A stretch of 64,000 nt of DNA. It comes from Candidatus Peribacteria bacterium. Its GTDB lineage: Bacteria; Patescibacteriota; Gracilibacteria; Peribacterales; Peribacteraceae. How positions within the stretch are numbered: the stretch's first letter is position 1; every line of letters starts with the position of its first letter. A model generated the notes under the pieces. That model had not been told where the DNA came from. It did no database searches and saw only the letters and a list, made by a program, of their open reading frames with translations. Location: positions 32,001 through 96,000 of the forward strand of contig JBEPVF010000001.1 in NCBI GenBank assembly GCA_041691135.1. The letters are read 5' to 3'. Positions 48,640-54,550 of the stretch are shown here, one piece after another. Made by a program: the position numbers and the translations under genes.

Positions 48640-51168
48640 TTAATACATGATCGGACCCCGGGCGTCCGTTGCCGGGAAGTCCACTTTGTTCTCGAATTTC
48701 ACGTCACTCAAGCTGTGGCTCTGCAGCCCCCCTTGCGACAGAGTAACCAATGATTCACTCAGACGTAGAATGCGCGTGATGTCTTTGCCCCACAGATAGC
48801 TGCCTGATTTTTGCTTGTCCTCATCCGTGTAGTGAGTAATTTGGCCGCGAAGCGTCAGACCTTTGTCGAGCGAAATATTGTAGACGTACGCGCCTTGGAA
48901 AGTTTGCGTCGCCATGGCTTCGTCGGGCTTCTTGTCTTTTTCGGCGCCGAGGAATTCCATGACGTTCACAGGGAAGGCCAGCAAGTTGCGTGACTTGTCG
49001 AATAGCAATGCATGGTGATCGTAGAGGAGGGGACTGTCGGTGCCGCGATCGCCGATCACGGTCTTGTACATCTCCTTAGGATTGTTCACGTCCGACACAT
49101 CGAAGATGGCTACCTTCAGGCCTTGGACTGCCGTGTAATAAACTGCATTGTCACTGTGGACCTTGTCGGCATCGATGGATTCGTCGACTTCTTTGCCAAA
49201 GCCGATCAAGTGTGTTTCGTCGTAAGGATGAAGGTAGCTGCTGTATCCCGGAATCTTCAGTTTGCCGAGGATTTTCGGGTTGTGCACATCGCTCAAGTCG
49301 ATCACAAAGAGGGGATCGACTGTCTTGAACGTAACGACGTACGCACGGTTGCCGATGAAGCGCACTGCGTAGATGCTCTCGCCCGGCGCGATGCCGTCGA
49401 CTTTGCCGATTGTTTTGAGATCCATGTCAGTTACAAACAGACTGTTCGACATCGATGCGGCGGGATCCCAGTTGTTCCCGATGCTCGTCGCCACGCGGAA
49501 GGTGTCGCCGCTTTCATCCATGGCAAATTGGTTGAGTAAGTGTCCGGGAACCGATCCCTGTGCCTTGAGTTCAATGCCGTCGGATGTGAAGGCGAAGCGG
49601 AAAAAATTCGTTTTTTCGTTCTGCTGTGGATGCGCGGAATCCCATACATAGTTTTGCTGCAGCGATGCGACGTACAAGTTATCAAGGGAGGCGTAGACAT
49701 TCTGCGCATCACCCACGATCGTTTTCGTCTTCACATCCGCGTTCAAGTTTGTCGTCGGGATCACGGCAACGGTCAGGTAGGCCGGTGACAGTATGTGCGG
49801 CAGGATGGCGATCTTGGCACAGGTTGTTACAGGCATTTCGGCCGTTCCCTTGGTTGAGTCGCTGAACTTGGGAAGGATTTGATCCTCCTTTACGTTGTCG
49901 AGCGGGATTGGCTGATTCCACTGCATCGACTCGTTCAGGACCATGTACAACTGATCATTGATCATGCGCGTCGACACGCTGTTTCCGTCAAAGCGTACCG
50001 TGCGTTCCAGCTTCGGATTGGCCGGATCAGTCACGTTGTAGACGCGAATGTCTTCTTTCTGGGCCATGAAATACGGGCGCATGATCATCATGTCTCCCCG
50101 GATCTTGCTCATCGGCATCACCGGGCCGTTATTCCATGCGTTGCCGACAACGATCAGGTGATCACCGTTCAAATACAATTCCTGAGGCGTCACATTGTCT
50201 TTGGAGAAATCAATCGTCGCCACTTGCTTCATGGCGCTCGCCGGCTGCGACTTCACAATGTACACGTTCTGGTTCTGAACCGTGTATACGTAGGTTCCGT
50301 CGGTCTTTACCGTATCGCCTTCATCCACTCCTTCGACCTGCACATTCGTCGTCGAGTGATCGGCCATTACAGCCGTTGAATTGGCGGACTTCATCTCGGC
50401 GCCGGGAGCGGCTTGGGGTGCCACCGCATCGCGCATCATGAGCGGACCGCCACCGTAACCTATGCTTTGAGTCGATAGTGTTGCACCAAACGCGCTGATA
50501 TCTGCACAGGTCTTCGCTGTCTGCACCGCATCGGATGCGGTGTTGATGCTCAGCTTCGGATTCTGAATATTCAGTACGCCCTTGGTCGGCTGATCGGTTT
50601 TCTTCTCGCTGATGCGCCACATCATTTCGGCCATTTCGCCGCGAGTGAGGAGGGCATCGAGTTTGCCGATCGTCGGTGGAATGGCTTTAGCCGATTCGAG
50701 TGCGCTCGTGTATGGCGTGTACCACTCGCCGCCTGAACTTTCTACTTTTTGCTTGTAGGCAAGCGATAGGACTTTTGATGCTTCCACAAACGTGATGTTC
50801 TGCCCCGGCTTGGCGGTACCGTCGGCGTAGCCCGACACGATGCCTTCGGCCTTGGCGGTGCAGAAATATTTGGCGAACCATTCGTCTTTCACGTCCGGGA
50901 AACAGTTGCTTCCCGTAAGATCGGCGGTGCCGCGCGCTTCCAAAATGATCTTCAAAAATTCACCACGCGTGATGGATTGACCGGATTTGAATGTGCCATC
51001 GGCATAGCCCTTGAGCACGCCTTTGGCTGCCAGCGCATCGATGGCAGTACTGTATTGGGTGCCTGCTTTTACATCACTGAATGCGAAAGTGCTCACTGGA
51101 AAAAACGTCGCAGCCATGCCAATCAGTGTGGCAGCCGCTGCGGCGCGGGGAGTCGAGAAACGTATCAT
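48640..51168 (-). CDS. SLH plus beta-propeller-domain secreted protein
   Basis: Signal peptide, three SLH repeats, then 'STTNVQVEGVDEGDTVKTDG', 'LNQFAMDE', 'VTFKTVDPLFVIDLS', 'LKIPGYSSYLHP'. Confidence 0.92.
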   Translation of the reverse strand: MIRFSTPRAAAAATLIGMAATFFPVSTFAFSDVKAGTQYSTAIDALAAKGVLKGYADGTFKSGQSITRGEFLKIILEARGTADLTGSNCFPDVKDEWFAKYFCTAKAEGIVSGYADGTAKPGQNITFVEASKVLSLAYKQKVESSGGEWYTPYTSALESAKAIPPTIGKLDALLTRGEMAEMMWRISEKKTDQPTKGVLNIQNPKLSINTASDAVQTAKTCADISAFGATLSTQSIGYGGGPLMMRDAVAPQAAPGAEMKSANSTAVMADHSTTNVQVEGVDEGDTVKTDGTYVYTVQNQNVYIVKSQPASAMKQVATIDFSKDNVTPQELYLNGDHLIVVGNAWNNGPVMPMSKIRGDMMIMRPYFMAQKEDIRVYNVTDPANPKLERTVRFDGNSVSTRMINDQLYMVLNESMQWNQPIPLDNVKEDQILPKFSDSTKGTAEMPVTTCAKIAILPHILSPAYLTVAVIPTTNLNADVKTKTIVGDAQNVYASLDNLYVASLQQNYVWDSAHPQQNEKTNFFRFAFTSDGIELKAQGSVPGHLLNQFAMDESGDTFRVATSIGNNWDPAASMSNSLFVTDMDLKTIGKVDGIAPGESIYAVRFIGNRAYVVTFKTVDPLFVIDLSDVHNPKILGKLKIPGYSSYLHPYDETHLIGFGKEVDESIDADKVHSDNAVYYTAVQGLKVAIFDVSDVNNPKEMYKTVIGDRGTDSPLLYDHHALLFDKSRNLLAFPVNVMEFLGAEKDKKPDEAMATQTFQGAYVYNISLDKGLTLRGQITHYTDEDKQKSGSYLWGKDITRILRLSESLVTLSQGGLQSHSLSDVKFENKVDFPATDARGPIMY

Positions 51169-51360
51169 AAGAAGAGAGGGGAAGATGTCTACACTGACAT
51201 AACGTTGAGGGTACCAAAAAGGTTACAGTACATCGGGAGGTTCTGTGGTGTGCGTCAAATCATTTCTGTATATCTAAAAGCGGCCGGTATGTCGGCCGCG
51301 AGGTTGATCGATGGGCCGGCCATCCCATGTGGAAGGCCGTAAATTCTCGTTCGCAATTCA

Positions 51361-51522
51361 TTACGTCTGTTCATCCATTTTTGGCGGGTTGAGTCGGTCC
51401 GCTATCATCATAAGGATGGCTCCGATGATTGGAATAGACCAGAGATCGTGCAGTTGAAACATATACACGTAGGCCCCGCCAACCGCGAAAATCAGTCCGA
51501 CTACAAGAACCAGTCGTTTCAT
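51361..51522 (-). CDS. 53-aa two-TM microprotein (array unit 1)
   Basis: MKRLVLVVGLIFAVGGAYVYMFQLHDLWSIPIIGAILMMIADRLNPPKMDEQT; SD-like AGGTGA before the ATG. Confidence 0.75.
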   Translation of the reverse strand: MKRLVLVVGLIFAVGGAYVYMFQLHDLWSIPIIGAILMMIADRLNPPKMDEQT

Positions 51523-51666
51523 GGTCTCACCTGTAACGAGAGGCGAAATGATCAACTGAAGCTAACCTACAATAAAAATGAAAATTACAAAATTTTTCTT
51601 GGCCTTGGTTCACAGCAAATAAAAGGCGGCCGGATGAACCGGCCGCAGGGGTTGATCGGAGCCTGT

Positions 51667-51870
51667 CTAGATGACAGGTGTGTGATACTTGGTTCGGCGC
51701 CATGGCCGCAGCCTCCAGAATATCAGTGCGCCGATGAGTGGCACCGGGCATGCCCAGAGGTATTTGCCGCTGAGGGCGATGTACATTCCAAAGGCCACGA
51801 ATGCCACGCCGAGGATATGGAGAATGACCAGCCGAAATGTTCCCACGATGCTCTCCTGTGCATGAGACAT
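51667..51870 (-). CDS. 59-67-aa two-TM microprotein (array unit 2)
   Basis: ...FRLVILHILGVAFVAFGMYIALSGKYLWACPVPLIGALIFWRLRPWRR...; start ATG 51870, or GTG 51846 which follows AGGAG. Confidence 0.75.
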   Translation of the reverse strand: MSHAQESIVGTFRLVILHILGVAFVAFGMYIALSGKYLWACPVPLIGALIFWRLRPWRRTKYHTPVI

Positions 51871-51985
51871 GGAGGATTTGATCAACTCAAACCAATCTAT
51901 AACAAAAATAAAAATTACAAAGTTTTTCTTGTGCCTTGACCTATGTCATGTAGAAGCGGCCGGTATGAACCGGCCGCAGAGTTGA

Positions 51986-52132
51986 TCACTCTCGTGTGGC
52001 GTACAAGCACAAGGACATGAACGCCGCCACTACCCACAGGATGATAGCTACCGACATGGGCCCTTGGACCCAAAAGTTGAAGCCGGTTCCTACGGTGACA
52101 GCCACCGCAAGCAACCCAATGAAGCGGAGCAC
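51986..52132 (-). CDS. 48-aa two-TM microprotein (array unit 3; not in the ORF track)
   Basis: Manual translation from GTG 52132: MLRFIGLLAVAVTVGTGFNFWVQGPMSVAIILWVVAAFMSLCLYATRE; GGGAGGTG SD; TGA stop overlaps GATCAAC. Confidence 0.72.
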   Translation of the reverse strand: MLRFIGLLAVAVTVGTGFNFWVQGPMSVAIILWVVAAFMSLCLYATRE

Positions 52133-52362
52133 TGTCACCTCCCTCTTTTAAAGAATTAAGGACATGCGATCAACAAGTACTAAATTACAATAAAAAATTT
52201 AAAAGGCAAATAATTCTTCGTACTCCATAGTCTGGTAGAAGGCCGGGGTGACGGGCAACAATCAGCGATGAATCGGACTAACTCCATTGGCCGCGAAGAA
52301 AGCGGCACCGCCATGCTGAAAAATCTGCTAAATGTTTGTCGAGCCATCTGACTTTTCAATTG

Positions 52363-52392
52363 AAAAAGCCCGGCTCATCACCAGGCTTTTTC
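52363..52392 (-). terminator. groEL terminator
   Basis: AAAAAGCC(C)GG...CCAGGCTTTTT imperfect hairpin after the groEL stop. Confidence 0.7.
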
Positions 52393-54441: not shown

Positions 54442-54510
54442 AGAAATGAAAGGGGAGTTGATAAGGAGAATAGATAAGTATGATGACGTTGAAGGGTAGT
54501 GAGTTGTGAT

Positions 54511-54550
54511 TTATCAGTCGGAATTCTAGAGTGATAACACTTGAAGTCAA
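54511..54550 (-). promoter_or_regulatory. groESL sigma70-type promoter overlapped by a CIRCE-like operator
   Basis: Minus strand TTGACT-N16-TAGAAT; TTATCACTC-N9-GACTGATAA at 54537-54511 versus canonical TTAGCACTC-N9-GAGTGCTAA. Confidence 0.8.

Follow-up and report, generated by a model that had tools for sequence, protein, structure and literature searches.

The stretch of DNA analysed here, referred to as the window, comprises 64,000 nucleotides (nt; G000:C1:32001-96000) of a 1.74-Mb genome in 35 contigs (52.9% GC, 92% complete), and its closest GroEL sequences belong to metagenome-assembled genomes of Candidatus Peribacteria and Peregrinibacteria. Downstream of groEL, on the minus strand, lies an array of three small units with the same order of parts: an AT-rich promoter-like block, the heptamer GTTGATC, a leader of 34-42 nt with a strong ribosome site, a short open reading frame (ORF), the heptamer GATCAAC, a GC hairpin, and a T-rich tail (Table 1). 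The repeat unit measures 330-350 base pairs (bp). The -10-like hexamers, TAATTT, TAGATT, and TAGGTT in units 1, 2, and 3, respectively, each stand exactly 7 nt before GTTGATC, and a TTGCCT or TTGTAA hexamer is found 16 or 15 nt upstream of them. The hairpin, GCGGCCG(G)...CCGGCCGC, begins 3-4 nt past GATCAAC in every unit. An earlier note on this DNA had described the three units as self-contained cassettes, in which a shared RNA scaffold carries unrelated two-helix cargo; on re-reading the sequence, we found the shared layout and all landmark coordinates that it gave to be correct.

The length of the encoded peptide depends on the start codon chosen, being 48 or 50 amino acids (aa) in unit 1, 59, 67, or 72 aa in unit 2, and 53 or 64 aa in unit 3; the starts behind GGAGG-like sites, which are those listed first in Table 1, were preferred. 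The ORF of unit 1 encodes two hydrophobic segments, is preceded at 5 nt by a GGAGG-type site, and ends in a TGA that overlaps GATCAAC. An A-rich stretch lies upstream of the promoter-like block of unit 2. The hairpins of units 2 and 3 were called by a terminator scan and that of unit 1 was not, because its tail, TTCTACAT, is poor in T; judging from this tail, transcription of unit 1 may possibly read through into unit 2. With its own promoter-like block and its own hairpin or terminator, each unit is predicted to be a separate transcription unit, as the earlier note had proposed.

Table 1. Features of the three-unit array and of the adjacent groESL genes (positions in the window)
Feature	Positions	Strand	Remarks
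Unit 1 promoter-like block	52182..52209	minus	TTGCCT 52209-52204, 16-nt spacer, TAATTT 52187-52182; 7/12, relaxed scan
Unit 1 5' motif GTTGATC	52168..52174	minus	Predicted transcript start; pairs with 51987-51981, probability 0.99-1.0
Unit 1 ORF	51986..52132, including stop	minus	48 aa from GTG 52132 (50 aa from GTG 52138)
Unit 1 3' motif GATCAAC	51981..51987	minus	
Unit 1 hairpin	51956..51977	minus	8-bp GC stem, 6-nt loop, weak T tail
Unit 2 promoter-like block	51894..51920	minus	TTGTAA 51920-51915, 15-nt spacer, TAGATT 51899-51894; 8/12
Unit 2 5' motif GTTGATC	51880..51886	minus	Pair probability 0.98-1.0
Unit 2 ORF	51667..51846, including stop	minus	59 aa from GTG 51846 (67 aa from ATG 51870)
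Unit 2 3' motif GATCAAC	51651..51657	minus	
Unit 2 intrinsic terminator	51626..51646	minus	8 GC pairs and T-rich tail; called by terminator scan
Unit 3 promoter-like block	51564..51590	minus	TTGTAA 51590-51585, 15-nt spacer, TAGGTT 51569-51564; 7/12
Unit 3 5' motif GTTGATC	51550..51556	minus	Paired with the 3' motif in folds
Unit 3 ORF	51361..51522, including stop	minus	53 aa from ATG 51522
Unit 3 3' motif GATCAAC	51303..51309	minus	
Unit 3 intrinsic terminator	51280..51299	minus	7 GC pairs and TTTTAG; called by terminator scan
groES	54441-54094	minus	
groEL	54048-52411	minus	
groEL terminator	52362..52392	minus	Strong hairpin; inverted repeat, read in sequence

The RNA of each unit, beginning at GTTGATC and extending to the tail, was folded in silico. 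Pairing of nt 1-7 with GAUCAAC was found for all three units in the minimum-energy structure and in the centroid structure alike, with end-pair probabilities of 0.98-1.0; the closing helix of unit 1 reaches 9 bp. The z-scores of the folds were -3.5, -3.8, and -2.3 for units 1, 2, and 3, respectively. The pairing of the 5' end with the GATCAAC ahead of the terminator, which the earlier note had suggested, was thus present in every fold. Because the first 7 nt pair with GAUCAAC beside the terminator hairpin, the whole mRNA is predicted to be looped shut. GATCAAC followed at 1-8 nt by the unit hairpin occurs three times in the 1.74-Mb genome, all at the array. When 677 terminator-like sites in the genome were examined, a promoter-anchored bracket of paired 7-mers was found at units 2 and 3 only (control, 0); unit 1 was missed in this analysis because of its tail.

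The non-coding scaffold is conserved among the units, as the earlier note had stated. The 3' blocks between units are identical at 33-35 of 41 positions (80-85%), and the promoter blocks of units 2 and 3 at 45 of 60 positions (75%), whereas coding identity between units is lower, at 0.42-0.45. A repeat search grouped the promoter blocks as a 53-nt direct-repeat family with three copies, and the promoter block pattern AAGAAAAANTTTGTAATTTT had 2 matches in the window, compared with 0.04 expected. The shared layout thus exceeds what chance would produce.

Peptides 2 and 3 resemble each other (Smith-Waterman score 52, z 6.7, 0/2000 shuffles) and have in common the residues R-L-V...G...Y...L-W...P-[IL]-I-G-A...R-L-x-P. 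By the same shuffling procedure, peptide 1 had no significant likeness to peptide 2 or peptide 3 (z 0.7 and -0.6, respectively). The description of the cargo as unrelated must therefore be given up for peptides 2 and 3, which are diverged paralogs, and it stands for peptide 1 insofar as no relation to the others is demonstrable. Codon-aligned identity between peptides 2 and 3 is 0.37, 0.65, and 0.33 at codon positions 1, 2, and 3, respectively, and third positions are saturated between the copies (0.29-0.35 identity). Since the second codon position, on which hydrophobicity depends, has been retained whereas identity at the third has fallen to chance, the copies are old, coding, and under constraint to remain hydrophobic. 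An AlphaFold2 single-sequence model of peptide 2 places residues 2-26 and 34-46 in helices (mean predicted local distance difference test score 72), and the peptides would be expected to insert in the membrane.

In line with the earlier note, which did not recognise the family, the peptides matched no known family in the collections searched. For the three peptides, no Pfam family scored over the cut-off (best E 0.055), and PHROGs gave no toxin or holin family (best E 0.16). Neither 5.8 billion clustered proteins nor a profile search of 1.84 billion representatives yielded any homolog other than the three peptides themselves, and the ESM Atlas contained no homolog (scores 0.84 or lower). They are best read as small, rapidly evolving membrane proteins.

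Because the motif is invariant among the three copies, these by themselves provide no covariation. Comparison of the groEL-downstream locus across relatives (the earlier note had proposed one across strains) revealed that the closing helix is kept in two species of the same genus, G003 (GroEL 84% identical) and G001 (GroEL 92% identical). In G003, TATAGT is followed after 6 nt by GTTGATC, a hydrophobic ORF of 76 aa, and GATCAAC, then after 1 nt by a hairpin that differs from that of the array, and by T8. Similarly, G001 has TTGACG, an 18-nt spacer, TATATT, 6 nt, GTCGATC, an ORF of 56 aa encoding two hydrophobic segments, and GATCGAC, which directly abuts yet another hairpin. The third pair of the helix in G001 is compensatory, with both sides changed from U-A to C-G. 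Outside the motifs, the promoters, leaders, ORFs, and terminators of G001 and G003 are unalignable, and the distances of the motifs to the -10 hexamer and to the terminator stem are kept in both. These fixed distances fit exactly the expectation for an RNA helix. The earlier note had opposed to its own view the possibility of simple diverged paralogs with no covariation in the end pairing; paralogy holds for peptides 2 and 3, and the change in G001 provides covariation. No bracket was found after groEL in G002, which is of the same genus, or in G005.

In G003 (L012, G003:C25), the 76-aa ORF ends ~95 nt short of the 3' motif. At positions 270-364 of this unit there is a second frame, with a hydrophobic stretch and a TGA overlapping GATCAAC like the stop codon of unit 1, which could be the result of a frameshift or a second small ORF.

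The comparison was extended to a set of 53 groEL-downstream loci of Peribacteria, 46 of which have at least 300 nt beyond groEL, and in which G001 and G003 are represented as L142 and L156, respectively. In three more species (L145, L168, and L173), the post-groEL slot is occupied by a stand-alone gene whose product, 52-55 aa long, has one or more predicted hydrophobic segments. The three peptides are clearly related to one another, with 62% and 37% identity to that of L173, and their family had no further members in a large protein collection. In L173, which carries a 5' hairpin, an 8-bp helix joins the ribosome site AAGGAGA(U) to a UCUCCUU segment abutting the terminator (fold z -7.9). L145 closes by means of a different helix, between GGUUUU at the 5' end and a GAAACC located 2 nt ahead of the terminator. 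L168 has a 5' hairpin and a weak 4-bp closure.

We then applied a uniform closure test to 8 units from 6 Peribacteria species, in which the number of expected pairs between the 5' untranslated region (UTR) and the 10 nt preceding the terminator stem was compared with the numbers obtained for 100 shuffles of those 10 nt. Seven of the eight units passed, with shuffled means of 0.8-3.3: 7.0 expected pairs in each of unit 1, unit 3, and G003 (0/100 shuffles in all three), 6.0 in unit 2 (2/100), 7.7 in L173 (4/100), 5.1 in L145 (2/100), and 4.4 in G001 (3/100). L168 had 1.3 expected pairs (35/100). Among 80 metagenome groEL loci, 19 were scanned (the top 17 together with L079 and L119; GroEL 66-86%) and none of these had a promoter-anchored bracket; 3 of the 19 have less than 150 nt downstream.

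Taken together, these findings indicate that the array is probably a tandem triplication of a small stand-alone membrane-peptide gene with a self-closing mRNA, which occupies a post-groESL slot in some Candidatus Peribacteria, a lineage of the candidate phyla radiation (CPR). In the mechanism that we propose, one such gene would have been triplicated in tandem after groESL, and each copy would consist of a weak sigma-70-like promoter, the 34-42-nt leader with its strong ribosome site, the coding region of a two-helix peptide of 48-59 aa, and an intrinsic terminator. The transcript would begin with GUUGAUC and pair with the GAUCAAC located 0-4 nt ahead of the terminator stem. Closure would act at the RNA level by burying the 5' end and compacting a very short mRNA, and it should shield the transcript against end-dependent decay. 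When the pairing involves the ribosome site, as it does in at least one related species, closure should gate translation as well.

Several observations weigh against this interpretation. The promoters of the units match the sigma-70 consensus at 7-8 of 12 positions with spacers of 15-16 nt, and fall below the threshold of a strict promoter scan. The transcript ends are predictions, because the sole sequencing run found to contain the locus is a DNA run, possibly its source, and the presumed stabilising role is derived from general knowledge of 5'-end-dependent RNA decay. A single compensatory change is found in the GTTGATC-type helix, the rest of the 7-mer being invariant in three species, and an invariant 7-mer would equally fit a recognition site in DNA or for a protein. 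Reverse-complement 7-mers located 100-450 nt upstream of terminator-like hairpins are mildly enriched genome-wide (85 versus 58 and 61 in controls for the 677 sites), as are 8-mers in the same test (26 versus 16 and 11). L168, one of the eight units, is without significant closure. Finally, treating the window units and those of L145, L168, and L173 as one gene rests on position and layout: in hhalign comparisons of the window peptides with the L145/L168/L173 family, E was 0.32 for peptide 1 and 0.014 for two profiles, with probabilities of 3% or less. A turn common to the window peptides and the L173 family, G-x-x-x-W-x(2,3)-G-P, was apparent in the profile alignment and is not significant.

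A different explanation, also raised by the earlier note, is that the units are type I toxin-antitoxin-like loci in tandem, similar to ldr, ibs, or aapA, in which the peptides would damage the membrane, the end-to-end fold would hold the mRNA inactive, and an antisense or trans-acting RNA that escaped detection would serve as the antitoxin. We consider this unlikely. In the T1TAdb paper (PMC8594479), the key marks of toxin mRNAs are given as Shine-Dalgarno (SD)/anti-SD pairing, stem-loops at the 5' end and at the terminator, and a 5'-3' long-distance interaction, and the same logic is described in the paper on aapA3 (PMC6733600). The window units possess two of these marks, the long-distance interaction and the terminator stem-loop, and L173 displays all four, including the 5' hairpin and a ribosome site paired to a CU-rich pre-terminator segment. 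Tandem repeats and hydrophobicity were used as search criteria by Fozo et al. 2010, as cited in the T1TAdb paper (PMC8594479). The peptides are indeed small (48, 59, and 53 aa), hydrophobic, orphan, fast-evolving, and arranged in tandem, each on a predicted mRNA of its own with promoter-like block and terminator.

By contrast, no antitoxin came to light. Among the 8 units there was no position-conserved antisense promoter (weak mid-ORF matches occurred in 3 of 8), and the 330-350-bp repeat has no room for a separate small-RNA gene. RNA from the spacer between groEL and unit 1 was considered as a trans-acting antitoxin and rejected, since its duplexes with the leaders were not better than those of shuffled sequences. 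Nor was the ribosome site evidently occluded. Although CU-rich segments are able to pair with the ribosome site in folds of the leaders, such anti-SD hairpins were rejected as a means of occlusion, because shuffled leaders hide the site equally well: accessibility was within the shuffle range in all five units tested, and in the units of this genome, 142, 225, and 65 of 300 shuffles gave a value no higher than that observed, as did 183 and 42 of 300 in the other two. In full-length folds, the unpaired probability of the ribosome site was 0.14-0.43 compared with a transcript mean of 0.35-0.42, and the closing helix of the units in this genome leaves the site out. The peptides have two predicted helices each, whereas most type I toxins have a single one; they match no toxin or holin in Pfam or PHROGs, and their groEL-adjacent position is conserved across species. 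A search against Rfam gave nothing over the gathering score, the best matches being OrzO-P (27 bits, cut-off 60) and a cyanobacterial small RNA, both on the groEL terminator. Also unlikely is the broader reading that the units belong to a lineage-specific family of type I-toxin-like or stress-gated membrane peptides, located behind groESL in some Peribacteria, in which a helix joining the pre-terminator segment to the 5' end or the ribosome site in the 5'UTR would lock the mRNAs, with the array as the expanded form of the family. If this were true, CPR bacteria would have their first described RNA-gated small-toxin-like module; in the literature searched, there was no paper linking type I toxins with CPR or Patescibacteria.

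Among described systems, the closest are hok/Sok and aapA/IsoA, which (PMC6733600, PMC8594479) are likewise small genes for hydrophobic peptides with their own promoter and terminator, present in several copies per genome, whose mRNA is closed from the 5' region to the 3' end and contains CU-rich segments facing the ribosome site. The units described here differ in that the 3' partner pairs with the extreme 5' end rather than with the ribosome site, which is used in L173 alone. In addition, the 3' partner lies upstream of an intact GC terminator hairpin and not at a 3' end open to trimming, the searches made revealed no antitoxin RNA, and the peptides have two helices and no family match. The ldrABC and ibs/sib arrays are also tandem direct repeats in which each unit contains one small hydrophobic ORF with its own signals. 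Their repeat units carry an antisense RNA gene as well, whereas no second promoter was detected in the 330-350-bp unit. Peptides of ~50-70 aa with two hydrophobic helices are known from GhoT and the S21 pinholin; unlike for these, we found no Pfam or PHROGs match at E <=0.05, no GhoS-like partner gene, and no phage context. With regard to RNA stability, 5'-terminal stem-loops, such as that of the ompA leader, stabilise bacterial mRNAs. The units are similar to such leaders in that the 5' end is paired from the first nucleotide, and L173 and L168 carry a local 5' hairpin at the same place. Here, however, the partner strand lies 190-360 nt off, beside the terminator, and the whole mRNA would be looped rather than locally capped.

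If the closure of the triplicated gene controls stability or translation, the logic of hok and aapA would reach a new phylum and peptides with two helices; should the peptides prove harmless, the locus would still be a clear case of a regulatory RNA that is better conserved than its protein. Across species, closure takes three forms, in which a 3' segment pairs with the 5' end, the helix has another sequence, or the ribosome site pairs with a 3' segment. Small membrane proteins and the control of their mRNAs have hardly been explored in CPR bacteria, organisms that are so far not cultivable on their own, and the locus provides a compact, testable case, a mini-gene of ~250 nt with an mRNA for which self-closure is predicted. 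In addition, a hotspot of small genes beside the chaperonin operon is marked by this locus.

The 7-mers could instead be elements of the DNA, either inverted repeats for a site-specific recombinase, as in attC-like cassettes or an invertible segment, or sites for a GATC-reading regulator or methylase, but this is quite improbable. Like integron cassettes, the array comprises small ORFs with conserved repeats of ~110 nt in between, and these repeats end in inverted 7-mers that resemble core sites: GATCAAC and GTTGATC are each one base off the integron core consensus RYYYAAC / GTTRRRY, the stretch running from GATCAAC up to the following GTTGATC measures 108 nt at both junctions, and its ends pair as single-stranded DNA. 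Moreover, the 7-mer is nearly invariant in three species, and GATC is ~1.7 times commoner in the genome than expected. In integrons, attC sites fold as a long imperfect hairpin with paired inner boxes, and the cassettes, which are mostly promoterless, have a complete site behind each. When both 108-nt stretches were folded as single-stranded DNA on both strands, they formed the paired ends, the terminator hairpin, and weak AT pairs, but no long imperfect palindrome. A promoter-like block is present in every unit, and no second GTTGATC-like core site follows the hairpin of unit 3, G001, or G003. The 92%-complete genome has no integron integrase over the cut-off; the best TIGR02249 match (87 bits versus 265) is an Xer-like recombinase ORF at C1:279368-280201, ~200 kb away. 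An integron cassette array was rejected on these grounds, and two of the ORFs are paralogous. The fixed distances of the motifs from the -10 hexamer and the terminator stem are expected of an RNA helix and not of a recombination site, and 7 bp is short for inversion repeats. The source-sample assembly has a single form of the locus in one contig and no joints, in a comparison of contigs only, which are not independent.

The earlier note had also envisaged a cargo-swapping cassette system and a search for more copies of the scaffold with different cargo. A regular-expression and blastn search of the whole genome found no other copy, and a DNA search of 40 relatives found none, its two 30-nt matches (E 2e-4 and 8e-3) being too short. 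The pattern GTYGATC-N120-400-GATCRAC proved too noisy to be of use, as each strand of the 5 genomes in the genus contained 3-33 matches, and three extra candidates from it were rejected on sequence inspection as not being units. A lone TATGTT followed after 6 nt by GTTGATC in AT-rich DNA (G000:C2 ~50590-50610, L061) was also discarded, as it has no 3' partner within ~700 nt; it lies within a 129-aa ORF of the opposite strand and is probably due to chance. With no more copies, no integron integrase, and housekeeping genes as neighbours, the idea of cargo swapping falls away, and the array is a tandem triplication.

That the end complementarity is a functionless by-product of duplication, with a scaffold shared through recent copying or gene conversion, would account for motifs that are invariant within the genome and for the lack of covariation among the three copies alone, but this reading is disfavoured and very improbable, given that the bracket recurs at the same distances from the -10 hexamer and the terminator in the single-copy units of G001 and G003 with unalignable flanks, that G001 has the compensatory change, and that third codon positions are saturated while non-coding blocks are 75-85% identical.

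The units are not merely the tail of the groESL operon, because the groEL terminator separates groESL from the array. The next gene encodes an 842-aa protein with S-layer homology (SLH) and beta-propeller domains, and the wider neighbours are housekeeping genes, including an amidophosphoribosyltransferase-like gene, folD, tmk, a pilin gene, proline synthesis genes, and LtrA; there were no recombinase or phage genes among the neighbouring genes. Upstream of groES, a CIRCE-like inverted repeat (TTATCACTC, 9 nt, GACTGATAA; 54505-54531, minus strand) overlaps the -10 hexamer of a TTGACT...TAGAAT promoter, which suggests that groESL may be under HrcA-type heat-shock control. This element is absent from all three units. 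On the plus strand, an open frame of 163 aa (51448-51939) runs antisense to units 3 and 2, including their terminator and promoter, and is most likely a shadow frame rather than a gene.

Minor observations were made at other groEL loci. On the strand opposite groEL, L031 (G044) and L064 contain a 9-nt complementarity, TGTCGTGGG / CCCACGACA, with ~297 nt between the two copies; the second copy lies 2 nt ahead of an opposite-strand terminator, and there is no promoter-like hexamer there. Small hydrophobic ORFs after groEL were not enriched among 79 loci (5 on the same strand and 10 on the opposite strand), in a count for which the groEL end was mislocated in long loci. L011 (G002:C34:1-760) and L064 (~160-440 nt past groEL) have other tiny ORFs, which encode single-helix peptides of 29-32 aa with a basic tail and are without the end bracket; in L064, two of them stand in tandem. 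The post-groEL slot seems to attract small hydrophobic genes.

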